This document shows positions 8,956-51,494 of a stretch of 64,000 bases of DNA, in pieces (within the stretch, counting starts at the first letter, position 1; every line of letters starts with the position of its first letter). The DNA comes from an uncultured Pseudomonadota bacterium (GTDB lineage: Bacteria; Myxococcota_A; Polyangia; Fen-1088). The translations under genes were made by a program, and so were the position numbers. Location: NCBI GenBank assembly GCA_963725905.1, contig CAVSAG010000002.1, forward strand, positions 804,962 to 868,961, read 5' to 3'. The notes beneath the pieces are model-generated. The model ran no database searches, was not told where the DNA came from, and was given only the letters and a program-made list of their open reading frames with translations.

Positions 8956-9191
8956 TCGTGTCTCCCCAAGGTGTGTTCCTGCGTTTACAACGGATGTTGA
9001 AGACGGCCCGTCCGCCCGCCTGCTCCCCCGAGCACCGCGCCCCACGTTGCGGACGGACGAGCCCTGCGGCGGTCTCGTGAGCAATCGCCGTGCCGCCCAT
9101 CGCGCCGCGGATTGCCGCGCCTTTCGGCCTCCGTCGCGGGCGCGGACAGTGTCCGATCACTGATCGGGTGATCGGCGATCACTCATTCCGA

Positions 9192-9902: not shown

Positions 9903-10933
<1,031 letters not shown>

Positions 10934-10954
10934 CGCTGGGCCCGCTGCGGCTTC

Positions 10955-12793: not shown

Positions 12794-12808
12794 GTCCTCG
12801 AATCGACC

Positions 12809-13699
12809 TCAGCTCTTCGGGATCTCGTTATTCACGACATAGAGGTCGTACTCGACCAGATCGTCGACCGTCGAAACCCGCCCGACACCGATGAACTCGT
12901 GGCGATTCATCCAGAGGTAGTTCGCGTGCGCGGTCATGAATTTGGGTGCCACCTGAAGCGCCGCATAGTCTGGAAACTCTCCCCGCAGCGCCCTTTCGTA
13001 TCCTCCTTGGCCCATGTCGAGGAATCCGGTGTTCTCTTCGGTAATCAGCGCGCCGTCGTTGGTCTTCATCGTGGCGCGAACCTGAAGAATGGCCACGCCG
13101 TCTCGGCGGATCGTCAGATAGTCGGTGCCCCGCGGCAGGAAGTGCGCTTGCAGATCGGGTCCGGTGACGCCGCCTCCATCGAGAAAGTAGTTGATGCGTA
13201 GCCCGTCCGGCGTGTCGCCGATGATCTCCGGTGTTTTCGAGACGAACACTTTGACCGAAGCGACGAATTTGAACTCGGGGGTGAACTTGGGGCCGACGTC
13301 CGAGTTCCTGGGCGGCGACCCGGGCTCGGGCACCGCCGGAGCTGGGTCGACCAGACGGAAGCGTGACGTGAACGCCGCCGTCCTGGCCGGCGCCGGCGCT
13401 TGCCGGCCGCTGCAAGTTACGACCGGGACGTACTCGACGAGGTCACCTTCGAGCAGCGGCGGAAAGACCGCGCGAAAGTACTGAACGTCGAGGGAGTAGT
13501 TGCGACCGAGCTCATAGCCCGATATGACGCGCTCCGGCCCGGCCGCGACGCGGTATCGAACGTTCACGACGTTGCCAGCGCTTGCGGGGTTGACCGCGAC
13601 GACGACGGATTGTCCCGTGCGCGCAGCCCCGTCCTCATTGGGACCGGGCGTATCCGGTCCCCCGTACCATATTGTGAGCCCGTCGTTCTCAGCTCGCAA
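12809..13699 (-). CDS. DUF3237-domain protein with about 130-aa N-terminal extension
   Basis: C-terminal half (GLRINYFLDGGGVTGPDL...YLTIRRDGVAILQVRATMKTNDGALITEENTG...YLWMNRHEFIGVGRV...EYDLYVV) fits the DUF3237/UPF0311 beta-barrel consensus. Confidence 0.65.
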   Translation of the reverse strand: MRAENDGLTIWYGGPDTPGPNEDGAARTGQSVVVAVNPASAGNVVNVRYRVAAGPERVISGYELGRNYSLDVQYFRAVFPPLLEGDLVEYVPVVTCSGRQAPAPARTAAFTSRFRLVDPAPAVPEPGSPPRNSDVGPKFTPEFKFVASVKVFVSKTPEIIGDTPDGLRINYFLDGGGVTGPDLQAHFLPRGTDYLTIRRDGVAILQVRATMKTNDGALITEENTGFLDMGQGGYERALRGEFPDYAALQVAPKFMTAHANYLWMNRHEFIGVGRVSTVDDLVEYDLYVVNNEIPKS

Positions 13700-13713
13700 A
13701 AGCCCCTCCGGCT

Positions 13714-14028
13714 CTAGTCTCCGGAGCCGTCAAGACGCATTTCCACGGCTGCCCGCTGTCTGCGCCCCTCAGTCGAATCACCGATCCCCGCTTGCCTCAC
13801 AACAACGATCGTGTCTGGTTCCTTTTCGCTGGGTTTCTCAGCCTTCTTGGCGGCGGCTCTCTTGGCGGCGGCCTTCTTGGCGGCGGCCTTCTTCTCGGCG
13901 GCCTTCTTCTCGGCGGCCTTTTTTTCGGCGGCTTTCTTGATAGCGGCTCTCTTCTTGGCAGCTCTCTTCTTGGCGGACGTCTCGTCGCCGCCTTCGCTCA
14001 GATCTTCATGCCCAACGCTCTCGCCCAT
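13714..14028 (-). CDS. Lys/Ala-rich histone-H1-like low-complexity protein
   Basis: KKAAEKKAAEKKAAEKKAAAKKAAAKRAAAKKAEK repeats; minus-strand codons are AAG/GCC/GAG (good bias) whereas the plus-strand alternative uses rare TTG/TCA; 40 nt downstream of the encapsulin gene. Confidence 0.5.
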   Translation of the reverse strand: MGESVGHEDLSEGGDETSAKKRAAKKRAAIKKAAEKKAAEKKAAEKKAAAKKAAAKRAAAKKAEKPSEKEPDTIVVVRQAGIGDSTEGRRQRAAVEMRLDGSGD

Positions 14029-14068
14029 GATGTGCTCCCTTTTGTGAGTCGAATATCAGAGGAACGAT

Positions 14069-14983
14069 CTACGTATGAAGGACGACGACAGAATCCATTT
14101 CCTTTGCTCGCAAGACGATTCGCTCCGAGACGCGGAAGACGTAGCGCGGTTCGGTGTTGATCTGGAGAAACTTCACCGAGATATCTGCCGCGACGACCAG
14201 CTCTATCGGACTCCCTCCCAGCGAAACCACCACGCCATATCCAGGTGACAGTGCACCGCACCGATAGAGTTGACCGTCCACAAACGGGAGGATGCGGTCG
14301 CGCGGCATGACCAGGCTGCCCGGGACCGGCTCGCAGGCAACCTCGAACAGATCGTTGGAAAGGGCGCACGCATAGGGGCCGAAGTGTCCAGCCGCTTCGA
14401 GCGAGGTTATCGCAGCCACGACGGACCGGACCAGCAGAGGCCCGACGGGCGGCAGCCGAATCTCGCCGCGTAGCCCTATGCGTGCGATGGGTCCCGCGAG
14501 CGGCGCAGCCGGAAGTTGGGGCGGCAGGAGCCCTTCCGTCGCGCCGCCCCCGGTTATTCTTCCGACGGCCCTCAAAGCCGCCGGGGTGTTAGGTGGCCAG
14601 TCGGCCAGCGCAGGCTGTCCGTGAAATATCAGCGCATCCTCTGCGCGGGCAATCAGATTGGCGGCGCGTCTAAACAACCCCAAAGCGGCCGACAAGTCGG
14701 GATCCGAGACTTCGTTCGTTCGCAGATACACCAGCGACGTAATGGTTGTCAGCGCGAGATCTGGATCGCTGTTGATCACGAGCCGTGGAGCCGGGGGGTT
14801 CCCCGCAGCGTCCTGGCCCAACAGAAGGCGGGGCACCGCGACGGTGGTTGGATCCAACGGCCCGTAGATGGGCAGGAACGAAGCGCCCACCCGCGCACGC
14901 TTCGCCTCCTGTGAGACCGTCTGCTGGACTAGGTTCCATTGGTCATCGGACCAGTTCAAATCCGCGGAGTTGCGATCCATCAA
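14069..14983 (-). CDS. encA: Family 1 encapsulin nanocompartment shell protein (EncA/linocin M18-like, HK97 fold)
   Basis: Alignable by eye to M. xanthus EncA and T. maritima encapsulin: LNWSDDQWNLVQQTVSQEAKRARVGASFLPIYGPLD, AEDALIFHG, AGHFGPYACALS, GVVVSLGGSPIELVVAADISVKFL, YVFRVSERIVLRAKEMDSVVVL. Confidence 0.85.
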   Translation of the reverse strand: MMDRNSADLNWSDDQWNLVQQTVSQEAKRARVGASFLPIYGPLDPTTVAVPRLLLGQDAAGNPPAPRLVINSDPDLALTTITSLVYLRTNEVSDPDLSAALGLFRRAANLIARAEDALIFHGQPALADWPPNTPAALRAVGRITGGGATEGLLPPQLPAAPLAGPIARIGLRGEIRLPPVGPLLVRSVVAAITSLEAAGHFGPYACALSNDLFEVACEPVPGSLVMPRDRILPFVDGQLYRCGALSPGYGVVVSLGGSPIELVVAADISVKFLQINTEPRYVFRVSERIVLRAKEMDSVVVLHT

Positions 14984-14999
14984 GTTCCCCCTGGGTCCA

Positions 15000-17900
15000 C
15001 TAACGGTTGATCGGTGGCGATTGTTCCCGCTGTTCCAGTGAATGTACGTCGAGCGATGAAATGCGACCGGAGTCGGCCACGCCGGTCTCGAGCGCGGTCA
15101 GCGTCGCGACCGCGCGCTGTTCGAGCAGGTAGGCGCCCTGACTGCGCGCGATGTCGATGGCCTTGCGCAAGTGGGCCTTGGCCTCCTCGGTCTCCCCGCT
15201 CGCCTGCAGCAGCAGGGCGCTTCGGAGACGGTGGAGCTCGGCGTCGCAGTTGTTCTCGCCGTTGGCTTCGGAGTAGCGGAAGGCGTCTTCGAGGACGCCC
15301 AACGCTTCCAAGGTCAGCCCGGACCTCGCCAGCAGGTCGGCCAGGCCCCAGCGCGCGTGAACGAAGTTCATGTGGGCGCCGCAGCTCTCGTATTCCCGGA
15401 TGCCGATCTCCATTTCGGCGCGGCCCGAGGCGAGCTCGCCCAAGCGAGCGCGGGCCCAACCGCGGTAACACCGGGCGGCGCCGACATAGAGCTGGAACCC
15501 TTCGTCCTGCGCCAGCGCCAGCAGACGGCCCGAGGTTTCGAGCAGGCTGGCGGCGTCTTGGCGCCAGTAGGAGAGCTCGGCCGAGAGACTCAGGTGAACC
15601 GCCGTGCTCGGGGGATGCCCCAACTGTGCGACGAGATCCCGACCCTGCGCGAGGGCGTGAGCGGATTCCTGCGGTCGTCCCTCCAGCGCCAGGCCGATCG
15701 CCTGGATTCCCCACATGACCGTGGTCGACGAGAGCTGAGTGATGCCGACGATGGCCTGCTCCTGCTCCAGCGAGAAGAGACGGCAGCCCTCGTCCGCGTG
15801 GCGAAGCGCCGACGACAGATCGCCCAGATAGAAAAGGGTGAAGACCATGGCGTGCCGGGCCATGACGCCCAGGAGCGGGTTGCCGGACGCGTTGGCCAGC
15901 GCCAACACGCGCTCGGCCACCGAGAGCGCGCGGGTGATTTGCCCGCGGACGAGGTACGTCGACCACAGACCCCAGAGCGCAGGGAGAACGCTCTCGTGAG
16001 CACCGACCTCCTCGGCCAATTGCAGCGCCCGCCGACAGCTGTCCTCGACCTCGTGGGCCGCCCACCCGTTGATGGCCATGAACGCCGGTGCGATCGCGAG
16101 GTTCAATGCGAGCTCCGCGGCTTTGCGCTCGGGCGACGCGGGGGTCAGTTCCGTCAGCCGGAGGGCGCGTTTGAGGTGAGCGATCGCCTCCTGATTGGCG
16201 GAGCGCCCGAGCGCCAGCGCCCCGGCGCGTTGCCATTGCGACGCCGCACCGCCGACATCGCCGCCTTCTTCGAGGTGCGAGGCGAGAAGCTCCGGTCGAG
16301 CAGCCGCCACGTCGGGGAAGCGCTCCCGCAACGTGTCGGCGGTTCGCCGGTGATATTCGCGGCGTTTCGATCGGGCGAGGGACCCATATGCCGCATCCCT
16401 CACCAACGTGTGCTTGAAGGCGTAGTTGACCGGAGAAGACCCCGAGGAGAGCAGGAGGCCCGACGAGAGGAGCCGATCGAGATCGGGCCTCAGCCCCTCG
16501 TCCGAAACCGTCGACACGGCGCTCAGGAGGTCGCCGGAGAATTCGCGCCCAATGACCGATGCGACCTGAGCGATCCCCTTGGCCGTGCCCAGACGGTCGA
16601 GGCGGGCCATCAACCAATCCTGGAGCGTGACCGGCACGGATGCCGTCGCCCCGGCCGGTCGGACAGCCTCCGTGGCGGATCCCGTCTGCTCCCAGTTCGA
16701 GGAGGGCGCGCGTTACCTCCTCGACGAACAGCGGAAGGCCATCGGTCATTTCGTAGATGCGTGAGGCCAGTGCTTCGTCGGCCATCCGACCGGCGACGCC
16801 AGTGACCATTTCAGCCACCTGCTCTCGTCCGAGCGAGGCGACCTTCATCTCCACCACGGTAGCCGGACCGGCCCAGGGTGCTTGGAATTCAGGCCACGCC
16901 GTCAGGCCGACCAGCACGCGAGACAGCGAGCCACGGACAACCATTTCAAGGACTTCGAGTGTCGTCGGATCCGCCCAGTGGAGATCCTCAATCGCCACCA
17001 GCACCGGGCCGTGAGCAGCCAGGCGTCGTAGCCATTCGACGATCGTCTCCAAAAGCAGGCGCCGCTGGCGCTGGGGAGTGATTCCGGCCCACGCCGCGGA
17101 AGCGTCCTGCGGGAGCGAGAGCAGAGCTGCGACAGCCGATATCTGCAAGCGCGACAGCCCGAGATTCGACATCCTCGCGCTCAACTCGGTCGCGACGGTC
17201 GCGACGTTCGCGATGTTCAATTGATCGGTCGTGATGCCGGCCCGCAACCACTGGCGCAGGAGCGAGACGATTGGATGGAGCGGGACGTTCTGATGCAGCG
17301 GAGAGCAATAGCCCTGTAGGACCGGCGCGTCACCCATCGTGACGTGGTTCTTGAAGACCTCGATGAGGCGCGATTTCCCAACGCCGGGCTCTCCGCGGAG
17401 GATGAAGACGGGACTCGCTCCGCTCTGCGCTGCTTGCCAGAAGTCGAGAAGGGTTGCCGTCTCCTCTTCCCGACCGACGAACGGCGTCAACCCAGATTCC
17501 CGGGCTGCCTCCAGCCTGGTCTGGGCGGCGGTCTCCCCGGTCACCAGATGAAGCTGGGTAGGGACCACACCCGAAAGGATCTTGTCGCCGGCGGGGCTGA
17601 AATGGAAGTATCCGGCCGCGAGCCGCCGTGTGCTCTCCGTGATCAACACCTGATTCGGTTGGGCCTCCGTTTGAACGCGCGCCGCGAGGTTCGGGGCCTC
17701 GCCGAACGCCAGCGTTTGTTCTCCTGCGCCGGGGCCAGTCGCTCCAATGACCACCAGCCCGGTGTGAATCCCGACCCGACAGGCGAGCTTGCTATTCCCA
17801 CCAACGAGGTTGGACACGCGACGGACGGTCTCGATGCCCGCGCAAATCGCTCTCCGGGCGTCGTCACCGTGCGCTTCCGGAAAGCCAAAATAGACCAGGA

Positions 17901-18153
17901 TCCCATCACCGAGGTACTGCGCGATATAGCCCCCGAAGGGCCGAATTGCCTCCGCGCAAGCCGTCTGATAGTCGCGGATGACGTCGCTGAATTCCTCGGG
18001 ATCGAGTTGGCGCGATAGCGCCATCGATCCGACGAGGTCGCAAAAGAAAACCGTCAAGTGACGGCGCTCGGACTCGCGTGACAACCGAGCACCACAGGCC
18101 CGGCACACACCACCACCGCCGGGGTTATCGCTGTTGCAGTTAGGGCAGAGCAC
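15000..18153 (-). CDS. zinc-ribbon / class III adenylate-guanylate cyclase / AAA ATPase / TPR signalling protein; frameshifted near 16640-16700 in this sequence
   Basis: N-terminus CPNCNSDNP...CRAC zinc ribbon. Cyclase homology domain HLTVFFCDLVGSMALS. P-loop GEPGVGKSRL. Conserved PVTLQDWLMARLDRLGTAKGIAQVASVIGREF plus TPR region in the other frame (ORF 15000..16637). Confidence 0.75.
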
Positions 18154-20267: not shown

Positions 20268-21614
20268 ATGGGGACGCGCGGGCAGGACACCACGACGCCC
20301 AACACCGCGCCGGTGGGGGCCGGCGGCGGCGAGCGGAGCATCGCCATCCGCTGGGTCTTCCCCACCGACGGCAACCTCACCCGTCTCGTTCCGGGGTCGA
20401 CGACGTTCGGGCGCGATCCCGACTGCACGGTTCCGCTCCCCAGCTCCTCCGTATCCCGTCGCCACGCCGAGATTCGCTGGACGCCGGGCGGAACGCCTCT
20501 CCTGCTCGACCTCAACAGCACCAACCACGTCTTCGTCAACGGGCAGGAGGTCAAGCACGCCAACCTCGAGCCCGGGGACGTCCTGCGCCTGGGAGATCGG
20601 GTGGGGATCGTCGTGGCGCTGACGGGGGAGGGCGCCGAGCCGTGGAGCTTTCGCGAGCTGACGGCGGGCTACTGGGGCGGCCCGGCGCTGCAGGCGGCGC
20701 TGGCGCCGGCCAGGCTGGTGGCCGGCACCGACCTGCCGATCATCATCCAGGGGGCGACCGGCTCGGGCAAGGAGGGGGCGGCGCGCGCCATTCACGCCTG
20801 GAGCCGGCGCTCGGGGCCGTTCGTGGCGATCAACTGCGCCGCGCTCCCGGAGACGCTGGCCGAGGCGGAGCTGTTCGGCTACCGCAAGGGGGCCTTCACC
20901 GGCGCCGACCGCGCCAGCCCGGGGTACCTGCGCGCGGCGGAGGGGGGGACGCTGTTCCTCGACGAGATCTCCGAGCTGTCGCTGCCGATCCAGGCCAAGC
21001 TGCTCCGCGCCGTCGAACAGCGCGAGCTCACGCCGCTCGGTGAGTCGACGCCGGTCGGGCTCGACGTGCGCCTGCTGGCGGCGACCCAGGCGCCGTTGCG
21101 CCAGGCGGTGAACGACAAGCGCTTTCGCGGCGATCTGCTGGCGCGGCTCGATGGCCTGACCGTCGCGCTCCCTTCGCTGCGTGATCGCGCCGACGAGATC
21201 CCGGCGCTGTTCCGCAAGATCGTCGAGATTCACGGCGGGCGATCGCTGCCGCCGCGGCTCGATCCGACCTTCGTCGAGGAGCTGTGCGTTCGCGACTGGC
21301 CGTTCAATGTCCGCGAGCTGGCGCTGCTGGCGCGCAAGCTGCTCGCGCTCTACCCGGACGGCGCGCTGCTCGACGGCAGCGCGCTCGGTGAACGGACGAT
21401 CGGCGAGGTCGGCGCCGCGGACCAGACGCGCCAGACGGCGGATATGCCGCCGCCCGACAACGAAGCCTTTGTCGCGGCGCTGCGGGCCCAGAACGGCAAC
21501 GTCAAGCAGACGGCGGAGGCGCTGGGGATCAGCCGTGGCCGCGCCTACCGGATGATGGAGAAGATCGACTCGCTCGATCTGGCGGCGCTCCGCCGGCGCG
21601 ACAATCCGGGCTGA
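20268..21614 (+). CDS. sigma-54-dependent Fis-family transcriptional activator with N-terminal FHA domain
   Basis: FHA (TFGRDPDCTVPLPSSSVSRRHAEIRW), AAA+ sigma54-interaction (IQGATGSGKEGAARAIH...GAFTGA...ESELFGH-like), C-terminal HTH (NGNVKQTAEALGISRGRAYRMMEK). Confidence 0.85.
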   Translation: MGTRGQDTTTPNTAPVGAGGGERSIAIRWVFPTDGNLTRLVPGSTTFGRDPDCTVPLPSSSVSRRHAEIRWTPGGTPLLLDLNSTNHVFVNGQEVKHANLEPGDVLRLGDRVGIVVALTGEGAEPWSFRELTAGYWGGPALQAALAPARLVAGTDLPIIIQGATGSGKEGAARAIHAWSRRSGPFVAINCAALPETLAEAELFGYRKGAFTGADRASPGYLRAAEGGTLFLDEISELSLPIQAKLLRAVEQRELTPLGESTPVGLDVRLLAATQAPLRQAVNDKRFRGDLLARLDGLTVALPSLRDRADEIPALFRKIVEIHGGRSLPPRLDPTFVEELCVRDWPFNVRELALLARKLLALYPDGALLDGSALGERTIGEVGAADQTRQTADMPPPDNEAFVAALRAQNGNVKQTAEALGISRGRAYRMMEKIDSLDLAALRRRDNPG

Positions 21615-22401: not shown

Positions 22402-23928
22402 TCAGGGCGCGGGGGGCGGCGCGGGGCAGTGGGCGTGGCTGGTGGTCATGGTGATGTTGCTCTTGTAGGCCCCGGTCGCCACGCAGGTCATGATCGCGCC
22501 GGTCGCGCTGTCGGTCGCCTGGAAGCTGCCGGCGCCGCTCGGCGTCCAGTCGAGCACCGCGCCGCCCCCCAGCGTGTAGCGCGCGATCTGCGGCGGCACC
22601 GACGGGTCGAGGTCCTGGCTCGCCACCAGGCTGCCGAGCACGTCGTCGCCGATCGCCTGCAGGTGAACGGCCACCGTGACGTGATCGGGCGTGGCCGGCA
22701 GCGCGCCGGCGCTCGGGTAGGCGAGCGTGAAGTGCGTCTGGTAGGTGCTGGGATCCATCGCGTTCTGGATCAGCAGGCCGGGGAGCTGGTTGCTCGGCGC
22801 CAGCGTCACCGCCTGCCAGAACATGTCGACCTGGGCGCCGCCGGCGTCGTAGAGGCAGTCGCGAATGAGCCACAGATCGGGATCGGGAGAGGCGTCCTCG
22901 AGCGGCAGCGCGCTCCCGAAGCTGCCGGCGGCGTCGCTGTTGCCGCTGGCGTAGACGACGGCGCCCTCCTTGAAAGCCGTCAGCTCGACCCAGGCGCGCC
23001 GATCGGGCGTGGCGCCGCTCGGCCAGCTGTGCCCCGAGGCGCCCGTGTTGTCGAGCGTGAGCACCAGCTTGTTCGTGATCGGGTTCAAGCAGAGCGTCTC
23101 CTGGAGCGCCGTGGCCAGGAACGCCGACGCGGCCGCCTGCTGGGCGGCGTTCTGCGGCGCGACGCCGTTGGTGGCGTCGGCCAGCGGGAAATCGCCGACC
23201 GCCAGATCGACCGCCGAGAGCAGGTGACTGTGGACGCGGCGGATCTTGGTCGGCGTCGTGGTCGAGACGGCGCCGTCGCTGGCGACCATGTGGCACTCGG
23301 CGCAGCTCTCGCCCCCCGGCGTCTTCGCCAGCGTGGTCGCCGACCACTCGGCGAACGTTCGCTCGACGTGGGCCCCCTGCAGGTTCTGGATGTCGTGGCA
23401 GCTGCCGCAGGCGTTGGCCGAATCGATCGTCGCTCCGTCGAGCAGCCGCGAGTAGGAGACCGTGTGCGGTGAGCCCGGGACCGGATCGTCGAACGGGCCG
23501 AAGAGGCCGCCGTTCGAGGCGAGCGTGAGCGGGTTGTTGTGCGTGCCGGTGACCTGCTCGATCGAGTGGCAGAAATAGCAGGTGACGCCCTTCATCGGCG
23601 CAGCGAGCGCGTCGAGGTTGGTGCCGTCGGTCTTCCCCTCGCGCACCGCGACCGGCGCGTGGCAGTTGACGCAGAAGGTGCCGAGCGCCTGGCTGGTCTC
23701 GCGCTCCGCCCGCTGGTTCATCGCGCGGAACACGGGATCGTCGGTGGCGTAGGCGTGCATGCTCCCCGACCAGTCCTGGAACTGCTGCGGGTGACAGGTC
23801 TTGCAGGTGAGCGGATCCATCAGCTCCGCTTGGGTGAGCGTCCCCGTTCCGGCGCCCGAGCCGCAACCGCCGAGCGCACCCAGAGCCAACGTGACGCAGA
23901 TAACGGCGCTCCGGGCCCTCGGTTTCAT
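22402..23928 (-). CDS. multiheme c-type cytochrome lipoprotein (5 CxxCH motifs)
   Basis: CKTCH, CVNCH, CYFCH, CGSCH, CAECH; signal peptide plus lipobox LALGALGGCGS. Confidence 0.85.
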   Translation of the reverse strand: MKPRARSAVICVTLALGALGGCGSGAGTGTLTQAELMDPLTCKTCHPQQFQDWSGSMHAYATDDPVFRAMNQRAERETSQALGTFCVNCHAPVAVREGKTDGTNLDALAAPMKGVTCYFCHSIEQVTGTHNNPLTLASNGGLFGPFDDPVPGSPHTVSYSRLLDGATIDSANACGSCHDIQNLQGAHVERTFAEWSATTLAKTPGGESCAECHMVASDGAVSTTTPTKIRRVHSHLLSAVDLAVGDFPLADATNGVAPQNAAQQAAASAFLATALQETLCLNPITNKLVLTLDNTGASGHSWPSGATPDRRAWVELTAFKEGAVVYASGNSDAAGSFGSALPLEDASPDPDLWLIRDCLYDAGGAQVDMFWQAVTLAPSNQLPGLLIQNAMDPSTYQTHFTLAYPSAGALPATPDHVTVAVHLQAIGDDVLGSLVASQDLDPSVPPQIARYTLGGGAVLDWTPSGAGSFQATDSATGAIMTCVATGAYKSNITMTTSHAHCPAPPPAP

Positions 23929-35527: not shown

Positions 35528-36415
35528 TCAAGTCGAGCTCTGAACGAGCTCGAGGAACGCGCGGGCGGCGTGGCTCAGCGTGCGGGCCTTGGCGTAGAGC
35601 AGGCGGACCTTGCGCTCGACGTGCAGCTCCTTGACGGTCACCTCGCGGACCACGCCGCTCTCGACATCCTGGCGGACACACATGCGCGGCAGGAACGCGA
35701 CCCCTTCGCCGTTTTGAACGAGGCGGCGAATCGTTTCGAGCGTTGGCATCTCGACGTCCATCCGCAGCGGCACCTTGTGGCGGCGGAACTCGCGCAGCAC
35801 GACCTCGCGGTACGGCGAGAGGACGTTGTGGGCGATGAAAGTCTCCTCGCCGAGCTCGGTGATCGAGACCGAACGCCGGCGCGCGAGGCGGTGCTTGGGC
35901 GAAACGATGAAGGCCAGCGCGTCGGTGTAGATCACCTTGGCGACCAGGCGATCGTCGCCCGGATCGTAGCTGGCGACGCCGAGCTCGAGGTCGCCTTCCA
36001 GGAGCTCGACGGGGATGCGGCTCGACTGCGCGCGCCGGATCTGGACCTTGATCTTGGGGTAGAGGCCTCGGTAGCGCTGGATGTACGGCAAGAGGTAGAG
36101 CGTCGAGGACTCGTTGGCGCCGACGACCAGTCGCCCTGCCGACTTGTCGCGCAGCTCGGCCAGCGCGTCGTTCAGCTCCTCTTCGAGGTTGCGGAAGCGG
36201 CGGGCGAAGTCGAGCACGGTGCGTCCGGTGTCGGTGGGGACCAGCTCCTTGGCGCCGCGGTCGATCAGCTTCTCGCCGAGCTCGCCCTCGAGGCGCTGCA
36301 CCGCCAGCGAGATCGCGGGCTGCGTGCGGAACAGCTTCTCGGCCGCGCGCGAGAAGCTGCGCTCACCGACGACCGTGGCGAAGACCTGCAGGGCGTGGAG
36401 CTCCATGGCCGGCAT
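35528..36415 (-). CDS. LysR-family transcriptional regulator (divergent from leuA)
   Basis: HTH ELHALQVFATVVGERSFSRAAEKLFRTQPAISLAVQRLE plus LysR substrate-binding domain; 295 aa. Confidence 0.85.
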   Translation of the reverse strand: MPAMELHALQVFATVVGERSFSRAAEKLFRTQPAISLAVQRLEGELGEKLIDRGAKELVPTDTGRTVLDFARRFRNLEEELNDALAELRDKSAGRLVVGANESSTLYLLPYIQRYRGLYPKIKVQIRRAQSSRIPVELLEGDLELGVASYDPGDDRLVAKVIYTDALAFIVSPKHRLARRRSVSITELGEETFIAHNVLSPYREVVLREFRRHKVPLRMDVEMPTLETIRRLVQNGEGVAFLPRMCVRQDVESGVVREVTVKELHVERKVRLLYAKARTLSHAARAFLELVQSST

Positions 36416-36496
36416 GGTAGAGCATAAGGAACGCTTATCTAACCAAGAATAATTATAAATTTGCGATATCGGGTCCCGAGACTCAAGGTTGAGCCC

Positions 36497-37699
36497 ATGC
36501 CCAGTTCGACGACCCCCACGACCACCCCGACCCCCGAGCGCGTTCACATCTTCGACACCACCCTCCGCGACGGCGAGCAGGCCCCCGGTTGCAGCATGAA
36601 CATGGGCGAGAAGCTGCGCATGGCCGCCAAGCTCGCCGAGCTGGGCGTCGACATCATGGAAGCGGGATTCCCCATCGCCTCGGCGGGCGACTTCGAGGCG
36701 GTGCAGAAGGTGAGCCGCGAGGTGGCGGTGAAGGTCGCCGCGCTGGCTCGCGCCACCACGCTGGACGTCGAGCGCGCCGCCAAGGCGCTGGAGGGCGCGA
36801 AGGTGGCGCCGCGGATCCACGTCTTTCTGGCCACCAGCGACGTCCACCTCAAGTACAAGCTGAAGAAGACGCGCGCGCAGGTGCTCGACGAGGCGGCGGC
36901 CGCCGTCGCGCTGGCCCGCAAGCACGTCGCCGACGTCGAGTTCTCGGCCGAGGACGGCGGGCGGACGCCCGTCGAGTACCTGATCGACGTCTCGCGCGCG
37001 GTCGTCGCCGCCGGCGCCACCACGGTCAACATCCCCGACACCGTCGGGTACGGCGTCCCCGAGGAGTACGGCGCGCTCATCGGCCAGGTGGCGCGCGCTC
37101 TCGGCAAGTCGGCCATCGTGAGCGTCCACTGCCACAACGATCTCGGGCTGGCGGTCGCCAATTCGCTCGCCGCCATCCAGAACGGCGCGCGCCAGATCGA
37201 GTGCACCGTCAACGGGATCGGCGAGCGGGCCGGCAACTGCTCGCTCGAGGAGATCGTGATGGTCTTGAAGACCCGCGCCGATCGGCTGCCGTACACGACC
37301 GGCATCGTCAGCGAGCAGCTCTATCCGGCGAGCCAGCTCCTGACCGAGATCATCGGCGTCGGCGTGCAACCGAACAAGGCGATCGTCGGGGCCAATGCCT
37401 TCGCACACGAGGCCGGCATCCACCAGGACGGGTTCCTCAAGGAGCGGACCACGTACGAGATCATCGAGCCCAAGAGCGTCGGCGTGCCGGAGAGTCGGCT
37501 CGTTCTGGGCAAGCACAGCGGCCGGCACGCGCTCGGCGATCGCTGCAAGGCGCTCGGCCTGGCGCTCGACAAGCCCCAGCTCGACGAGCTCTACACGCGC
37601 TTCACGGCGCTGGCCGATCGGCAAAAGGGGATCACGGACGATGAGATCCGGGCCCTCGCCGGCGAGGCCGTCAAAAGTTTGACAAGAAAAATAGCGTAG
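36497..37699 (+). CDS. leuA: 2-isopropylmalate synthase-like (HMGL-like TIM barrel + subdomains) lacking the C-terminal LeuA_dimer regulatory domain
   Basis: [15 protein letters not shown]...[17 protein letters not shown]...[25 protein letters not shown]. Last codons (AAA AGT TTG ACA AGA AAA ATA GCG TAG) are AT-rich and run into an AT-rich island. Confidence 0.8.
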
Positions 37700-37750
37700 T
37701 TTTAATTACTTAAACGAAGTAAGAAAAGTTTGTAAGTCCGCTAAAGCACT
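37672..37750. repeat. AT-rich (about 30% GC) 80-bp island with two direct repeats AAAAGTTTG(A/T)NAAG, at the 3' end of leuA
   Basis: Repeat copies at about 37673-37686 and 37724-37736; composition is atypical for a 70% GC genome. Confidence 0.5.
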
Positions 37751-37776
37751 AGCGGCAGGCCACCGATGCTTCATTC

Positions 37777-38625
37777 ATGGTGGCGGAACGTGTGGCCCGA
37801 AGCCTGGGTGTTCTGTGCCTGGCAACCAGCGCTCTTTCGTGCGCGGGGTCGGGCGAGGCGACGGACGCGCCGATCGGCATCGCGGCCGTCGTCGACAACG
37901 GCCTGTCGGCAAACGGCCTGTCGGCGAACGGTCTGTCGGCCAATGGGCTGTCGGCGAACGGTCTGTCGGCCAACGGGCTGTCGGCGAACGGCCTGTCGGC
38001 CAATGGGCTGTCGGCGAACGGCCTCTCCGCCAACGGGTTGACCGCCAGCGGTCTTCTGGGCGGTGGCTCGACGGCGCTGACCGATCCGATGATGCAGCAG
38101 GTCCTCAAGTACATCGTCTCGTGCGCGCTCGGTCCGGAGCAGAGCCTCACGTTCACCGCGGCCGGTAAGGCCTACAGTTTCCCCGGTCAGCTGGGCCTGG
38201 CGCCGCAGTGGGGCGGCGACCACGGGGTGTGTGACGGCTCGTGCCAGCGGTGGGTCTCGGCCTGCCTGCTCGCCCGCGTCGACGCCGCGGGGATCGACCG
38301 CGAGATCTCCATCCGCGGACCCAACCTCGCGCTGCTGCCGACCTGGAGCGAGCTCGCAGGCTACACGCAGCGCGAGGCGACCTACTTCGGCAACATCTTC
38401 ATTCCCGGACAGCCGCGCTACCTCTGCTTGCCGCCCGGGCAGAGCGGGGACCAACGCGTCTGCGGCGACTCGATGAGCGACTGCCCGATGACGGTCCTCC
38501 CGTCGTGCGCCAAGGCCTGCGCTTTCCAAGGGCTGTTCGGCGACTTCGACCTCTGCAGCGATTCGGGGAAGTTTGGCAAAGGCCAGACCTACTTCGAGAG
38601 CGTCACGGTCTTTCTGCCCAAGTAG
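37777..38625 (+). CDS. lipoprotein with 11 pentapeptide (NGLSA) repeats and Cys-rich C-terminal domain
   Basis: MVAERVARSLGVLCLATSALSCAG lipobox. DNGLSA(NGLSA)x9 NGLTASGLLG. C-terminal domain with about 12 Cys. Confidence 0.7.
   Translation: MVAERVARSLGVLCLATSALSCAGSGEATDAPIGIAAVVDNGLSANGLSANGLSANGLSANGLSANGLSANGLSANGLSANGLSANGLTASGLLGGGSTALTDPMMQQVLKYIVSCALGPEQSLTFTAAGKAYSFPGQLGLAPQWGGDHGVCDGSCQRWVSACLLARVDAAGIDREISIRGPNLALLPTWSELAGYTQREATYFGNIFIPGQPRYLCLPPGQSGDQRVCGDSMSDCPMTVLPSCAKACAFQGLFGDFDLCSDSGKFGKGQTYFESVTVFLPK
37897..38061 (+). repeat. 10-11 near-perfect tandem copies of a 15-bp unit (AACGGNCTGTCGGCN) encoding NGLSA
   Basis: Direct reading of the sequence; variants differ only at wobble positions. 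Confidence 0.85.
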
Positions 38626-42659: not shown

Positions 42660-43770
42660 AACATCCGCGCAATCAAGGTCGAGCCGTCCGCGCGCCGACG
42701 CGCCCAACCCATCGGCGTCCCGGCGCAGACGACCGCACCCCCGCCGAATCAAGTCACGCGAGCGCCGCGGTCCCAGCGGAATCAAGTCGCGCGGTCGCCG
42801 CGGCGATTCGGCCGCCCACCACGCAACCCGCCGCGGTCCGCGCCCGACAACGGGACATGCGCGGAATCAAGACGGTGCGACGGCGTCAGCTCAACTTGCC
42901 CCTCGGGGCGCCACGCACCTGGGGTGGCGCTCGCAAGGGCGCCGGGCGGAAACCCCGCGGCCGTGCCTCGATGCCCCACGACACGCGGCCGAAGGTCGAT
43001 CCGCGATACCCGGTGCAGGTCACCATTCGCGCGACGCCGGGGCTGCCGTCGCTGCGCTCCCCCCGGCTGTTCGGGGCGCTCCGGCGCGCCATCGCGCGTG
43101 CGTCGGTCGACCGGTTCCGGGTGATTCACTTCTCGATCCAGCAGGACCACGGCCACTTCATCGTCGAGGGGGACGAAGCCCGGCGCGCCCGCGGGGGTAT
43201 GCACGGCCTGGCGATCCGCCTGGCGCTGGCAGTCAACCGCGCCCTCGGGCGCAAGGGGCAGGTCGTCGGCGACCGCTACCACGCGCGCCCGCTGACCACG
43301 CCGCGCCAGATGCGGACCAGCATGGTTTACGTGCTGCTCAACTTCCGCAAGCACCTCCGGGCGCCCGCGTGCATCGACCCGCGCAGCTCGGGGCCACAGT
43401 TTTCGGGGTGGCGGCGCGCGCCCGCGAGCGCCGACGCGATCACCCCCGCGATCACCGGCGCGATCACCGGCGCTCCTTCGGCGACGGCGTCGCCTGCCAC
43501 CTGGATGGCGCGCGTCGGATGGAGGCGCGCGGGCGGTCTGTTGCGGGTCGACGAGCACCCCGCCTCGGCGCCGCGCGCGCACCCAACTTGAATCCGCGGA
43601 TGTTGCCCGGCGCGGGCCGCAGCCACTTGAATCGCGGATGGGTCGCGGCGGGTCGCCCGCCTCGAGCGCGCCTGAAGCCGAAGGCGGCTTGAATCCGGAC
43701 GGCAGCGCTGAAGGCAGGGACGGGAGCGCTTGAAGGCGGGAAGGCATTTGAAACTTCTGCGCGGGCGACT
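42660..43770 (+). mobile_element. IS200/IS605-like (Y1 HUH) RAYT-type transposase with flanking REP-like repeat arrays
   Basis: Transposase CDS 42857..43591 flanked by 4 upstream copies of GAATCAAG(T/A)C and 3-5 downstream copies of CTTGAA(T/G)C. Confidence 0.45.
42857..43591 (+). CDS. REP-associated tyrosine transposase (IS200-like, PF01797 Y1_Tnp)
   Basis: PRYPVQVTIRATPGLPSLR...RFRVIHFSIQQDHGHFIVEGDE (HxH of the HUH motif)...YHARPLTTPRQMRTSMVYVLLNFRKH. Confidence 0.8.
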   Translation: MRGIKTVRRRQLNLPLGAPRTWGGARKGAGRKPRGRASMPHDTRPKVDPRYPVQVTIRATPGLPSLRSPRLFGALRRAIARASVDRFRVIHFSIQQDHGHFIVEGDEARRARGGMHGLAIRLALAVNRALGRKGQVVGDRYHARPLTTPRQMRTSMVYVLLNFRKHLRAPACIDPRSSGPQFSGWRRAPASADAITPAITGAITGAPSATASPATWMARVGWRRAGGLLRVDEHPASAPRAHPT

Positions 43771-43791: not shown

Positions 43792-44607
43792 ATGGCCACC
43801 GTCGACGTTCCGCTCAAGAGGGTCCGTTTCGGCCACACCGCCCGCAAAGATGCCTGGTGGGTCATGCCGCTGACGACGTTCGTGGTGTTTTCCGCGTTCA
43901 TCGTCTACGTCACCTGGGCGCTGTTTCAGGGGGAGAACTACAGCTACGGCAACTACCTGTCGCCGCTCTACTCGCCGGAGCTGTTCGGCAACTCGCCGCA
44001 CGCCTGGTTCGGCCCCTGGCGCTGGCCTTTCCTCCTCCCCTTCGTGCCCTTTATTAAATATTCGCCGGCGATGCTGATCCTGATCTTCCCGTTGGCCTTC
44101 CGCATGACCTGCTACTACTACCGCGGCGCCTACTACAAGGCGTTCTGGGCTGACCCGCCCGCCTGCACCGTCGGCGAGCCGCGCGACGAGTACCGCGGCG
44201 AGCAGAAGTGGCCGCTGCTCATCCAGAACGTGCACCGCTACGCGCTCTACTTCGCGCTCGTCTTCATCGTCCTTCTGTCGATCGACGTGGTGAAGGGGTT
44301 CATCTTCAACAACCCCAAGACCGGCCAGGCGACGTTTGGGATGGGCGTCGGGTCGCTGGTGCTGCTCCTCAACGTCGTGCTCATCGCCGGCTACACGCTC
44401 GGCTGCCACTCATTCCGCCACCTGGTGGCCGGGGTGATGGACACTTTTTCGAAGTCACCGTTGCGCAAGAAGGCCTACGACTGCGCGAGTTGCCTCAACC
44501 GGCACCATCCGAAGTGGGCCTGGTGCTCGCTGATCTGGGTCGGGCTCACCGACGTCTACATCCGCCTCTGCGCCAGCGGCGTCATCACCGACCTGAGGAT
44601 CTTCTAG
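43792..44607 (+). CDS. sdhC: succinate dehydrogenase / fumarate reductase cytochrome b subunit (b558 family, 5 TM)
   Basis: Polytopic membrane protein immediately upstream of sdhA with a 2-nt gap; conserved His in TM helices; alternative start at 43771. Confidence 0.7.
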   Translation: MATVDVPLKRVRFGHTARKDAWWVMPLTTFVVFSAFIVYVTWALFQGENYSYGNYLSPLYSPELFGNSPHAWFGPWRWPFLLPFVPFIKYSPAMLILIFPLAFRMTCYYYRGAYYKAFWADPPACTVGEPRDEYRGEQKWPLLIQNVHRYALYFALVFIVLLSIDVVKGFIFNNPKTGQATFGMGVGSLVLLLNVVLIAGYTLGCHSFRHLVAGVMDTFSKSPLRKKAYDCASCLNRHHPKWAWCSLIWVGLTDVYIRLCASGVITDLRIF

Positions 44608-47831: not shown

Positions 47832-47956
47832 CGGGTGGGGGGTGAGCATATCCGCCGGGCGGGCGGCGCCAACAATAACTCACCGCCGGCGAAAAGCAGG
47901 TGACCGGCCCCACGCGGCTTGGTTTATGCTCGCCGCCCTCGGAGGGAGACAAGAAT

Positions 47957-49159
47957 ATGAGGAAGCTCAGCTCGTTGGTCGGTTCGTCGCTTTTGGGACT
48001 CGCGTTGGGAGCGGCGGCCTGCGCGGGCCCGGCCGCGGTATCGATGAAGCCGGTGGTGGTCGTTCCGGCCACCGGCCCGCATGCACCGGACGTGAACCCG
48101 TTCGCGGGCGCGAAGCTCTACGTGAACCCGAGCTACACGGCGATGGTCGAGGGGCTGGCGGCAAAGCACCCCGAATCGGCTGACAAGCTCAAGAAGCTCG
48201 GCGCCTATTCGACCGCCATCTGGATGAGCAAGATCGCCGACCTCCCGAAGATGTCCCAGTACCTGGCCGACGCCGAGGCGCAGCAGACCGCGGGCGGCAA
48301 GCCGGTGGTCCCGGTGTTCGTCGTCTACAACATGCCCGGCCGCGACTGCGCCGCCGCGGCCTCGGCCGGCGAGCTGCCGCCCAACGAGACCGGCGAGGCG
48401 CGCTACCAGAAGGAATACATCGACGTCGTCGCGGCGGCGCTGGCGGCGCACCCCAAGGTGAACACGGCGCTGATCCTGGAGCCCGACTCGCTGGGCAACC
48501 TGGTGACCAACCTCGAGAAGCCGAACTGCGCCGTCGCCGAGCCGATCTACAAGCGGGCGATCGCCTACGCCATCGCCAAGCTGTCGCTGCCGAACGCCTT
48601 CATCTACGTCGACGCCGCGCACGCCGGCTGGCTCGGCTGGCCGCGCAACATCGTCAAGAGCTACACCCTCTACAAAGAGGTGCTGACGATGGCGGGCGGT
48701 CCCGATCGCATCCGGGGCTTCGCCACCGACGTCTCGAACTACAATCCGTCCAAGGATCCGACTGCGCCCAAGCGCGATCCAGCCGCAGCCCCCAACGACG
48801 AGCTCGGCTACATTCAGGATCTGGCCAAGGGGTTGCCGTCGGTCGGGATCACCGGCAAGGCATTCGTCATCGACACCGCGCGCGACGGCGTCCCCAACAT
48901 CCGGACGGAGCCGGGCAACTGGTGCAACATCAAGGGGGCGGGCCTCGGCGAGCGCCCGCAGGCCTCACCCGAGCCGAACGTCGACGCCTACCTCTGGATC
49001 AAGCCCCCGGGCGAATCGGACGGCACCGCCGACACCAAGGCGGCGCGCTTCGACGCGAACTGCGTCTCCGACGACGCCGCGCCCGGCGCTCCGGAGGCGG
49101 GAGACCTGTTCGAGCCGTATCTGCTCGACCTCGTCAAAAACGCCAAACCACCGCTCTAG
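47957..49159 (+). CDS. glycoside hydrolase family 6 (second copy)
   Basis: VVYNMPGRDCAAAAS, LILEPDSLGNL, YVDAAHAGW, YLWIKPPGESDG; signal MRKLSSLVGSSLLGLALGAAACAG. Confidence 0.85.
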   Translation: MRKLSSLVGSSLLGLALGAAACAGPAAVSMKPVVVVPATGPHAPDVNPFAGAKLYVNPSYTAMVEGLAAKHPESADKLKKLGAYSTAIWMSKIADLPKMSQYLADAEAQQTAGGKPVVPVFVVYNMPGRDCAAAASAGELPPNETGEARYQKEYIDVVAAALAAHPKVNTALILEPDSLGNLVTNLEKPNCAVAEPIYKRAIAYAIAKLSLPNAFIYVDAAHAGWLGWPRNIVKSYTLYKEVLTMAGGPDRIRGFATDVSNYNPSKDPTAPKRDPAAAPNDELGYIQDLAKGLPSVGITGKAFVIDTARDGVPNIRTEPGNWCNIKGAGLGERPQASPEPNVDAYLWIKPPGESDGTADTKAARFDANCVSDDAAPGAPEAGDLFEPYLLDLVKNAKPPL

Positions 49160-50159: not shown

Positions 50160-50783
50160 ATGACGGACAACATGCTGAGCAAAGCCGGGGAGGCTGGCGG
50201 GGCGGGCGGGATGAACGCCGACCAGGCGATGAGCCAGTACGCCCAGGGGGACGTGGGGGCGTTCGAGATCGTCTATGAAGTGGTCGCCCCGCGCATCGAA
50301 GGCTACGTGCGCCGCAAGGTGCGTGACAGCGCGCGCGTCGAGGACATCGTGCAGCAGACCTTCGAGAACATGCACAGGGCACGCGGCACGTTCGTCCCCG
50401 GCTCGGACGTCCTCAACTGGGCGTTCGCGATCGCGCGCAACCTGGTGATCGACACGGGCAAAAAGGCCGGGCGCGAGACCTCGTCGGACCTGTCCGCCGA
50501 GAACGACGGGATGGGCGCGGTGCTGGCGGCCGCGGTGGCGGGCGGCGAGGAGCTTTTCCTGGCGCGCGAAACCGGCGCGCTGCTGGTCCGCACCTACGAG
50601 GGGCTCACCAAGCTGCAGCAGGAGGTGTTCGAGCTGGTGAAGCTCGAGGGGCTGTCGTACCAGCAGGCGGCGGCCACGCTGGGGATCACCGTTCCCAGCG
50701 TCCGCATGTACGCCCACCGCGCGTACGTGAGCTTGCGCGAGGCGGTCGGCGAAAATTTGCCGGCGGTCGCGGTTCCAGGGTGA
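50160..50783 (+). CDS. ECF-subfamily RNA polymerase sigma-70 factor
   Basis: Sigma region 2 (FEIVYEVVAPRIEGYVRRKV...AEDIVQQTF) and region 4 (LTKLQQEVFELVKLEGLSYQQAAATLGITVPSVRMYAHRA). Confidence 0.85.
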   Translation: MTDNMLSKAGEAGGAGGMNADQAMSQYAQGDVGAFEIVYEVVAPRIEGYVRRKVRDSARVEDIVQQTFENMHRARGTFVPGSDVLNWAFAIARNLVIDTGKKAGRETSSDLSAENDGMGAVLAAAVAGGEELFLARETGALLVRTYEGLTKLQQEVFELVKLEGLSYQQAAATLGITVPSVRMYAHRAYVSLREAVGENLPAVAVPG

Positions 50784-50840
50784 CGACGACGACGACGGCG
50801 ACGACGACCTGCTACGCTAACCCATTCGAAGGGATCCCCC

Positions 50841-51494
50841 GTGCCCCTCTCTCCTGAATTCAAGAGCCGCGTCCTCGCCTCCGTGCGCGAGGTGCCGGCC
50901 CCGACCCGCAAGGAGACGCTGAGGCGGCAGACCTGGCTGTTCGCGGCCGGGCTGGCCGGGGCGCTGGCGCTGTTCTTCATCAAGGGTGGCCTCCGCGCGA
51001 CGAATCGGCCGCCGTCGCTCATCGCGCTGACCAGCCTCGGCACGGCCGTTTGCGTGGGGATCGGGATGTGGTTGCTGTTCACGCGCGCGCCGGGCGGGCT
51101 GCGCCGGCCCTGGACGGTGCTGCTCGGCGCCGCCGTCCTCTCGACGATCGGCTTCGTCACCTGGCGCTGGGGCGTGAGCGCCCTCTACGATCGTGCCGGG
51201 GCCTGGCCGGGGCGGGTGGGGTTCCGCTGTCTGTCGCTCGGCGTCGGGACCGGCGGCCTCATGCTGTTCGCCGCGCTCATGTGCTGGCGGCGGAGCGAGC
51301 CGGTCACGCCGCGCGCGACGGGCGCCGCGTTCGGCGCCGGGGCCGGCCTCGGCAGCGCGTTTCTGGTCGACCTCTGGTGCCCGGTGGCGTACGTGCCGCA
51401 CCTGCTGCTGGGGCACGTCCTCCCCATCGTCATCCTCTCGCTGGCGGGGGCGCTCATCGGCGGGCGCGTGCTCGGCATGTTCCGCCGCCGCTGA
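50841..51494 (+). CDS. anti-sigma factor, NrsF/DUF1109 family (6 TM)
   Basis: Membrane protein directly downstream of the ECF sigma gene; topology and size match DUF1109 anti-sigma factors. Confidence 0.65.
   Translation: MPLSPEFKSRVLASVREVPAPTRKETLRRQTWLFAAGLAGALALFFIKGGLRATNRPPSLIALTSLGTAVCVGIGMWLLFTRAPGGLRRPWTVLLGAAVLSTIGFVTWRWGVSALYDRAGAWPGRVGFRCLSLGVGTGGLMLFAALMCWRRSEPVTPRATGAAFGAGAGLGSAFLVDLWCPVAYVPHLLLGHVLPIVILSLAGALIGGRVLGMFRRR

Follow-up and report, generated by a model that had tools for sequence, protein, structure and literature searches.

When a biosynthetic gene stops about a hundred codons early and runs into a short stretch of A/T-rich DNA, has it been clipped by an insertion, or is the short gene the natural one? 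The question is raised by leuA, the gene for 2-isopropylmalate synthase (IPMS), in a stretch of 64,000 nucleotides (hereafter the window) of contig CAVSAG010000002.1 (assembly GCA_963725905.1, positions 804,962 to 868,961), which comes from an uncultured bacterium placed in the Polyangia. An initial annotation of the window had proposed that an insertion or recombination event, possibly at the edge of a downstream lipoprotein and kinase block, removed the 3′ end of leuA and left an A/T-rich island with direct repeats. Comparison with orthologous loci leads us to another answer. leuA is very probably an intact member of a natural IPMS lineage that has no regulatory domain, and the island would be a conserved regulatory region at the 5′ end of the operon that follows.

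A complete catalytic core without the regulatory domain

The leuA gene begins with an ATG at 36497 and ends with a TAG at 37697-37699, coding for a product of 400 residues. In Pfam, this product matches HMGL-like (PF00682) over residues 15-280 (E = 1.6e-87) and HCS_D2 (PF22617) over residues 296-377, with no match to LeuA_dimer (PF08502) anywhere along its length. The score obtained with the IPMS equivalog model NF002086 (598.9) is above the cut-off of 532, and the match covers positions 4-389 of the 516 of the model. With TIGR00973 the score is below the cut-off (558.2 against 598.7), as expected if one domain is absent. The models of full-length LeuA could be aligned only as far as positions 379-389 of about 494-523, and canonical LeuA is longer than the window protein by about 110-120 residues. 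The estimate of roughly 100 missing residues, and the absence of the allosteric domain, are therefore supported both by Pfam and by the coverage of NF002086. The cut-offs of the homocitrate, NifV and citramalate models were far from being reached (TIGR02660, 292.9 against 462.9; TIGR02146, 270.5 against 413.6; TIGR00977, 196.7 against 450).

The catalytic core, on the other hand, is complete and highly conserved, as the initial annotation had stated on the basis of the sequence and as the PF00682 match and the active-site residues indicate. Residues R24, D25, H211 and H213 are invariant in the 25 homologues compared and all of them align to the enzyme of Neisseria meningitidis (NmeIPMS). The closest solved structure is the catalytic domain of N. 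meningitidis IPMS (3rmj, E = 2e-114), followed by the Brassica methylthioalkylmalate synthase MAM1 and by homocitrate synthases. The alignment with MAM1 (6e1j) reaches residue 388 of the 400 of the query, and that with full-length LeuA extends to about the same residue, in both cases through the accessory domain. From a shallow alignment, AlphaFold2 gave a model of low confidence, with a mean predicted local distance difference test (pLDDT) score of 64.7, which was not used for fold searches. Like canonical LeuA, represented by the IPMS of N. meningitidis and M. tuberculosis, the window protein thus joins a TIM barrel with the RDGEQ, HxH and GERAGN motifs to an accessory domain; it differs from them in having no C-terminal LeuA_dimer domain, which is of about 120 residues.

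Short LeuA as a natural form

The nearest homologues of the window LeuA were taken as the best 120 database matches, which are 82-99% identical to it and several of which are labelled Polyangia bacterium. All 120 are 389-421 residues long and carry only the HMGL-like and HCS_D2 domains. The initial annotation had itself reasoned that the same short form in related genomes would indicate a natural short family, and its presence in every one of these homologues argues against a leuA clipped by an insertion. The C-terminus reads K-[I/T/S]-A in 118 of them, with an R before the K in most, and R-T-A in the remaining two.

More distant relatives came from a scan of one genome per species, saturated by the generic pattern HEAGIHQD, from which 80 loci were compared; Acidobacteriota relatives were recovered in this way and Polyangia genomes were missed. 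These Acidobacteriota proteins, mostly from Bryobacterales, are 66-73% identical to the window LeuA. In the 31 Acidobacteriota short-form loci, 93-106 residues separate the HEAGIHQDG motif from the end of the open reading frame (ORF), as they do in the window LeuA, and in 25 of the 31 loci leuB lies 0-182 nt downstream of leuA, that is, in the normal context of the leucine pathway. Relatives from Bryobacterales that stop at the same position, with leuB directly 3′, also speak against clipping. We searched for the supposedly displaced LeuA_dimer coding sequence by tblastn with 15 LeuA regulatory domains, and no remnant was found in the 64-kb window or in the orthologous loci (best E = 0.5); two full-length loci, used as positive controls, were detected at 1e-28.

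An exhaustive search was also made among the representatives of 50%-identity clusters, and the top 150 were assessed. The nearest representative is a full-length protein of 510 residues (P0121, 66% identity) with a weak LeuA_dimer match, and about 26 of the 150 are complete two-domain short forms. Because of this proportion, LeuA homologues without the regulatory domain can be said to be common, and by all appearances they have arisen repeatedly. Acidobacteriaceae and Terriglobales have in addition a LeuA of medium length (loci L027-L033, L037-L040, L043, L045, L047, L049-L052, L055, L057, L062, L071-L073 and L080), in which a low-complexity extension of about 40-65 residues stands in place of the regulatory domain and, in most cases, finishes with the conserved C-terminus QEDYLWGV.

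In a rough neighbour-joining tree, the Polyangia clade is nested within the Acidobacteriota leuA-leuB clade. The lineage to which the window LeuA belongs would consist of Bryobacterales and other Acidobacteriota, in which leuA is followed by leuB, with the Polyangia clade among them. This nesting suggests that a cassette made up of leuA and its adjacent regulator gene, discussed below, may have been transferred between phyla. The loss of the regulatory domain would have occurred long before leuA came to lie beside its present neighbour.

The island as part of the downstream operon

The spacer between leuA and the lipoprotein gene (37700-37776, 77 bp) has a guanine plus cytosine (GC) content of 40%, with a lowest value of 31.7% over 60 nt, compared with 69.5% for the whole window. 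The A/T-rich island is therefore real. Using a C-terminal LeuA peptide as query, we retrieved 66 metagenome loci for comparison. Wherever the lipoprotein gene lies directly 3′ of leuA (40 loci) the spacer is AT-rich, with 29-53% GC, and its length is 78 nt in 29 of these 40; in most of the loci in which another gene follows leuA, the spacer is GC-rich (58-79%). The alignment of 36 islands contains 25 invariant columns, which fall into the blocks AAAA..GCGTA, AC, TAA, T.AAG, CGAT and ATG, parted by variable stretches of fixed length.

Loci in which leuA and this element have come apart indicate to which gene the element belongs. In locus L093, leuA and the lipoprotein gene are separated by a gene of about 517 codons, and the complete element is found immediately 5′ of the lipoprotein gene; leuA ends there with ...A-R-K-T-A, written CGC AAG ACG GCC TGA, in a GC-rich context. 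In L121, L122, L126 and L116 the element is found 25-50 nt past the stop codon of leuA, with the tail of the protein in G/C-rich codons, and the palindrome-like block that overlaps the leuA stop codon in the window lies in non-coding DNA in L121, L122, L126 and L093. A nested clade (L124, L127, L133, L135-137) has no lipoprotein-kinase block, and its leuA tail is still R-K-S/T-A. Because of these three situations we assign the element to the lipoprotein operon. Judged by its distribution, the island is a conserved and presumably regulatory 5′ region of the lipoprotein-kinase operon and not a scar. The initial annotation was thus right in suspecting the edge of the lipoprotein-kinase block at this place, an edge that moves with the lipoprotein gene in L093. 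The intervening gene of L093 codes for a membrane protein and characterises the sub-clade formed by L092 and L093, in which it stands between leuA and the island.

Two other roles for the island were considered and rejected. The GTAAT-N4-ATTAC palindrome, together with a switch in gene orientation, had prompted the idea of a replication origin, a terminus or a dif site. The window has no GC-skew switch, and the element accompanies the lipoprotein gene when another gene intervenes. A second operator for the LysR regulator of leuA was suggested by the resemblance of AAAATTGCG to AAATTTGCG, and the operator weight matrix gave -3 to -10 bits in the island against 28-42 bits at the true site.

Two constraints on the end of leuA

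The switch to A/T-rich codons at the end of leuA, also recorded by the initial annotation, is a pronounced one. The GC content at third codon positions is 94.6% in codons 1-391 and 3/9 in the last nine (GTC AAA AGT TTG ACA AGA AAA ATA GCG), among which are both AAA codons of the gene and its sole ATA, AGA and ACA codons. The block AAAA..GCGTA is invariant in 36 of the 36 island-bearing loci, including the synonymous sites of AAA and GCG, and where the stop codon is separate from the element the tail is written CGC AAG NCN GCS. Lineages without the A/T-rich island have the same tail in G/C-rich codons, which is one more argument against clipping.

Since the tail turns G/C-rich wherever leuA and the element separate, the comparison indicates that R-K-x-A is conserved as protein and that the choices AAA, AT(A/T), GCG and TAA are imposed by an overlapping DNA element. 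In the clade of the window, the upstream end of the element would reach into leuA, covering its stop codon and the codons just before it and placing these bases under the double constraint of the protein tail R-K-I-A and of the DNA element AAAAT(A/T)GCGTAA. The presence of rare A/T-rich codons at this place would be explained by this double service. Nearly the whole Polyangia clade keeps the R-K-[I/T/S]-A tail (window 37685-37696) regardless of codon choice, and the short forms of Bryobacterales lack it.

A candidate promoter in the island

Two blocks of the island stand out by their constancy. T.AAG is invariant in 36 loci, and CGAT is invariant too, with a distance to the ATG that is constant in 46 loci. 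Searched as a bipartite motif, the pair gave 48 matches in 352 kb of sequence from the Polyangia lineage; 46 of them are the island site, always 9 nt before the ATG. No Shine-Dalgarno sequence precedes the ATG of the lipoprotein gene. From the two invariant blocks, whose distance from the ATG is constant, and from the missing Shine-Dalgarno sequence, we infer a sigma-28-type promoter that would give a leaderless lipoprotein-kinase mRNA. Transcription from this sigma-28 or group-3-type promoter would start at or beside the A of the lipoprotein ATG (A37777). The AT-rich upstream half of the island, including GTAAT-N4-ATTAC over the stop codon of leuA, would serve as an UP-like element or as an operator.

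The fliC promoter of Pseudomonas aeruginosa, in open complex with sigma-28, has the elements (-36)TCTAAAG(-30) and (-15)GCCGATAA(-8) (PMC12784957). The island resembles this promoter, of the class recognised by FliA, WhiG and SigD, in having CTAAAG and nCCGATnn at -15 to -8, with an A at -11, when numbering starts (+1) at the A of the ATG. The distance from the G of TAAAG to CGAT is 17 nt in the clade of the window, 16 nt in L117 and L121 and 16 nt in fliC. The island differs from sigma-28 promoters in its target, which is the lipoprotein-kinase operon and not a flagellar gene. A consensus scan for sigma-70 promoters and intrinsic terminators found nothing, and our search of the literature on leaderless transcripts in Myxococcus returned nothing informative.

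A LysR regulator and its putative operator upstream of leuA

On its other side, leuA is divergent from a gene for a LysR-type transcriptional regulator (LTTR) that reaches no NCBIfam equivalog cut-off. The homologues of this regulator that lie adjacent to and divergent from leuA are 75-96% identical to it in Polyangia loci and 42-74% in Acidobacteriota loci. Among the 80 genome loci, leuA has a LysR gene as its neighbour in 27 of the 31 short forms, 17 of the 24 medium forms and 2 of the 22 full-length ones (Fisher p = 9e-9), so that short and medium forms combined have it in 44 of 55 loci.

The spacer between the two genes (36407-36496), which the initial annotation did not mention, is AT-rich (47% GC) and conserved. 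The pattern ATAA-N7-TTAT is kept in the orthologous spacers, and the divergent arrangement with a T-N11-A dyad is conserved in more than 60 loci. A second core, ATTATAAATTTGC(N)(A/T)AAT, is near-invariant in the spacers of Polyangia and Bryobacterales, i.e. in two phyla, and the operator weight matrix gives 40 bits at 36447-36472 and negative values everywhere else. The core of Bryobacterales, TTGCCA-N17-CATAAT, points to the probable promoter of leuA, with a putative -35 TTGCGA at 36461-36466 and a putative -10 CAAGGT at 36484-36489, 7 nt 5′ of the ATG. As the -10 predicted in Polyangia is only 6-7 nt before the ATG, the leuA mRNA of Polyangia may also be leaderless.

Divergent LysR-type regulators of branched-chain amino-acid genes are well known from enterobacteria, where IlvY-ilvC and LeuO-leuABCD are examples. 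The arrangement in the window is like theirs in the regulator gene being divergent from the biosynthetic gene and in the short spacer with a T-N11-A dyad and a second site over the -35 region; unlike them, the window LysR is below every known equivalog cut-off. In the literature we found nothing on a bacterial short LeuA paired with a LysR regulator. Since leuA nearly always travels with the divergent LysR gene and a highly conserved operator, we propose that the control of flux is probably transcriptional, through this pair, rather than allosteric.

Does the short enzyme respond to leucine?

The two-domain architecture of the window LeuA is also that of the MAM synthases, tomato IPMS3, apple citramalate synthase (CMS) and homocitrate synthase. 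The plant MAM, IPMS3 and CMS proteins are neofunctionalised paralogues; they differ in this from the window lineage, which scores as IPMS and whose Acidobacteriota representatives adjoin leuB. In plants, MAM, IPMS3 and apple CMS are well-documented cases in which the regulatory region of IPMS was lost and, with it, feedback inhibition (PMC7826400). By analogy, the window LeuA is likely to be insensitive to leucine.

Alternative explanations

The island as the junction of an insertion, which is the explanation from which we started, would require that the lipoprotein-kinase block entered a full-length leuA, deleted its regulatory domain and left behind AT-rich DNA with repeats. Such an event is consistent with the absence, in one Polyangia clade, of a block of about 6 kb (island, lipoprotein gene, kinase gene and ORF 42857-43591), with the composition of the island, foreign to the window, and with the presence of the 9-mer AAAAGTTTG in two copies. 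The window contains this exact 9-mer at two places only, 37673 and 37724, which are 51 bp apart; the number of matches expected by chance is 0.04. The repeat had been described as AAAAGTTTG(A/T)NAAG; the two copies do exist, and the longer pattern fits only the first of them, the second (AAAAGTTTGTAAGT) being one base shorter. Both copies, however, are found to one side of the block and flank nothing, and the first shows no conservation even among relatives at 85-92% identity. Having no conserved counterpart and enclosing nothing, the repeat is probably incidental. Block-less loci have the same short leuA with the same R-K-x-A end; in them (L124, L127, L133, L135-137) leuA abuts a homologue of window 43792-44604 (87% identity). 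As their clade is nested among block-bearing clades, loss of the block is the more parsimonious reading. If we add that in the Acidobacteriota relatives leuA stops at this same point, upstream of leuB, that no recombinase was recorded in the syntenic flanks and that tblastn found no remnant of a regulatory domain in the window or the orthologous loci, an insertion at this site becomes extremely improbable.

The island could also act as RNA, either as a 3′ untranslated region (UTR) or terminator of leuA, or as a riboregulator in the 5′ UTR of the lipoprotein gene or a small RNA controlling its translation. Just before the ATG there is a 7-bp inverted repeat around CCGAT with compensatory changes (at pair 76/90, 14 loci have GC and 12 have AU), and the window may pair CCACCGATG with CATGGTGG across the start codon. 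Nevertheless, RNAalifold returned no consensus pairs over 36 loci, an Rfam scan of 36300-37900 with E up to 10 gave two chance matches only, and the fold of the window sequence is ordinary (z = -1.47), the hairpin of the other clade not being formed by it. The consensus scan found no terminator-like hairpin followed by a T-run. The conserved blocks are blocks of primary sequence, and the fixed-length spacers between them are variable and unstructured. The island is conserved at the level of sequence and not of RNA structure, and the inverted repeat flanking CCGAT could equally be a palindromic operator. A role as RNA therefore seems to us quite improbable, although less so than an insertion.

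A third possibility, compatible with a natural short form, is that the short LeuA is a specialised paralogue acting on another 2-oxo acid or in secondary metabolism, with a canonical LeuA encoded elsewhere. In plants, loss of the regulatory domain goes with new functions in MAM, IPMS3 and MdCMS (PMC7826400), and in Polyangia the linkage of leuA to leuB has been lost; the TIGR00973 score under its cut-off would also agree with a specialised enzyme. On the other side stand the 66-73% identity to Acidobacteriota genes located directly upstream of leuB, the NF002086 score above its cut-off with the homocitrate, citramalate and NifV models far below theirs, and the invariant active-site motifs. We consider a specialised paralogue unlikely, if the least unlikely of the three, and retain the interpretation of leuA as a natural, regulatory-domain-less IPMS next to the 5′ regulatory region of another operon.

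Several observations weigh against this interpretation or against parts of it. No leuB was found in the window or in the fetched Polyangia loci, leuC and leuD not being included in that search, and the neighbour-joining tree behind the proposed transfer is crude. Regarding the regulator, the association of LysR with the short form is confounded by phylogeny, and the regulator is also found beside full-length LeuA in L018 and L066. Because of these two loci, the LysR linkage would predate the loss of the domain and would not have been acquired as its replacement. The sigma-70 consensus scan did not call the leuA promoter. With respect to the candidate sigma-28-type promoter, its -10 element ends in GC and not in AA as in fliC, its spacer is 1 nt longer in the clade of the window, and a partial ORF scan of the window found no sigma-28-type gene, the sole sigma gene detected being of the extracytoplasmic function (ECF) type. 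The repeat flanking CCGAT shows some covariation, with pairing in 73% of the cells compared with 64% for shuffles and 32-51% for slid controls, and might instead point to an operator or an RNA hairpin. Finally, homocitrate synthase shares the two-domain architecture and yet remains subject to end-product inhibition, which acts at the active site. Artificial truncation of the M. tuberculosis and N. meningitidis IPMS led to loss of activity (PMC9860122). Plant enzymes that lost the regulatory region are free of feedback but homocitrate synthase and the truncated IPMS behave differently, and for this reason we regard leucine insensitivity as likely rather than certain.

The downstream operon and other features of the window

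The coordinates of the features discussed are given in table 1. The lipoprotein gene, with its (A/S)N(G/A)L(S/T) repeats and Cys-rich C-terminal part, and the gene for the kinase of about 1340 residues form a conserved pair in 35 loci. L081, L082 and L083, whose LeuA homologues are 92%, 85% and 91% identical to that of the window, have the same succession of LysR gene, leuA, a spacer of 77-78 nt, lipoprotein gene and kinase gene, and sdh/frd genes follow the kinase gene in the two long loci, L081 and L082.

Table 1. Features of the leuA region and of the neighbouring genes, in window coordinates
Feature	Position	Strand	Remarks
LysR-type transcriptional regulator, 292 aa	35528..36406	-	HTH_1 and LysR_substrate domains; divergent from leuA
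LTTR box ATAAGGAACGCTTAT	36424..36438	.	Dyad ATAAG-N5-CTTAT, T-N11-A motif, read from sequence
Conserved putative operator and -35 region GAATAATTATAAATTTGCGATATCGG	36447..36472	+	Near-invariant core across spacers
leuA, short 2-isopropylmalate synthase	36497..37699	+	400 aa: catalytic TIM barrel and accessory domain, no allosteric domain
A/T-rich last nine codons and stop (V K S L T R K I A *)	37670..37699	+	AAAATAGCGTAG = 5′ block of the downstream element
First AAAAGTTTG copy	37673..37681	+	Within leuA coding sequence; not conserved in orthologues
Palindrome-like block GTAGTTTTAATTAC	37696..37709	.	GTAAT-N4-ATTAC in most relatives; overlaps leuA stop codon
Second AAAAGTTTG copy	37724..37732	+	In spacer; partly conserved, AAA(G/C)TT(T/C)G, within the sub-clade of the window only
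TAAGT block, then CTAAAG (37741-37746), candidate -35	37733..37746	+	CTAAAG at -36 to -31 from lipoprotein ATG
ACCGATGC, candidate sigma-28-type -10	37762..37769	+	-15 to -8 from ATG; A at -11 = base 37766
Lipoprotein gene	37777..38625	+	Signal peptide with lipobox, ANGLS pentapeptide repeats, Cys-rich C-terminal part
Ser/Thr protein kinase, AAA_16 and TPR, about 1340 aa	38573..42622	+	Always after the lipoprotein gene
ECF sigma (Sigma70_r2, r4_2), then NrsF-like negative regulator of sigma F	50160-50780; pair 50160-51491		

Elsewhere in the window there are two genes of glycoside hydrolase family 6 (cellulase-type), at 7432-9084 on the minus strand and at 47900-49156 on the plus strand, a multihaem cytochrome gene (22405-23928) and a gene for an FHA-domain sigma-54 activator (20268-21611). 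The region from about 10000 to 18000 has a GC content of 64-66%, compared with the 69.5% average, and contains polyprenyl synthetase and amine-oxidase-like genes.

Implications

The most immediate consequence of these results is that a false lead is removed, since the leuA locus would be neither a pseudogene nor a fusion scar nor the junction of a mobile element. Taken as a whole, a more ambitious scenario can be drawn, in which allosteric feedback was abandoned completely in favour of a dedicated LysR that senses a metabolite of the pathway and acts at the near-invariant operator, the cassette passed from Acidobacteriota to Polyangia, the mRNAs of leuA and of the lipoprotein-kinase operon are leaderless, and the latter is driven by a sigma-28-family promoter that lies partly inside leuA, in bacteria which as far as known have no flagella. 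That all of this should hold together is doubtful, and we put it forward only tentatively.

The comparison brings to light a large, so far unnamed bacterial clade of LeuA proteins that have no regulatory domain and appear to be co-inherited with a LysR regulator and its operator. This clade could be a source of IPMS enzymes on which feedback inhibition naturally does not act, and may become a test case for the passage from allosteric to transcriptional control. The end of leuA would also amount to an experiment made by nature: the four residues of the tail stay the same, with A/T-rich codons where they overlap the promoter of a neighbour and G/C-rich codons elsewhere. That neighbouring promoter would, in turn, be a candidate for a sigma-28-like leaderless promoter in Myxococcota.

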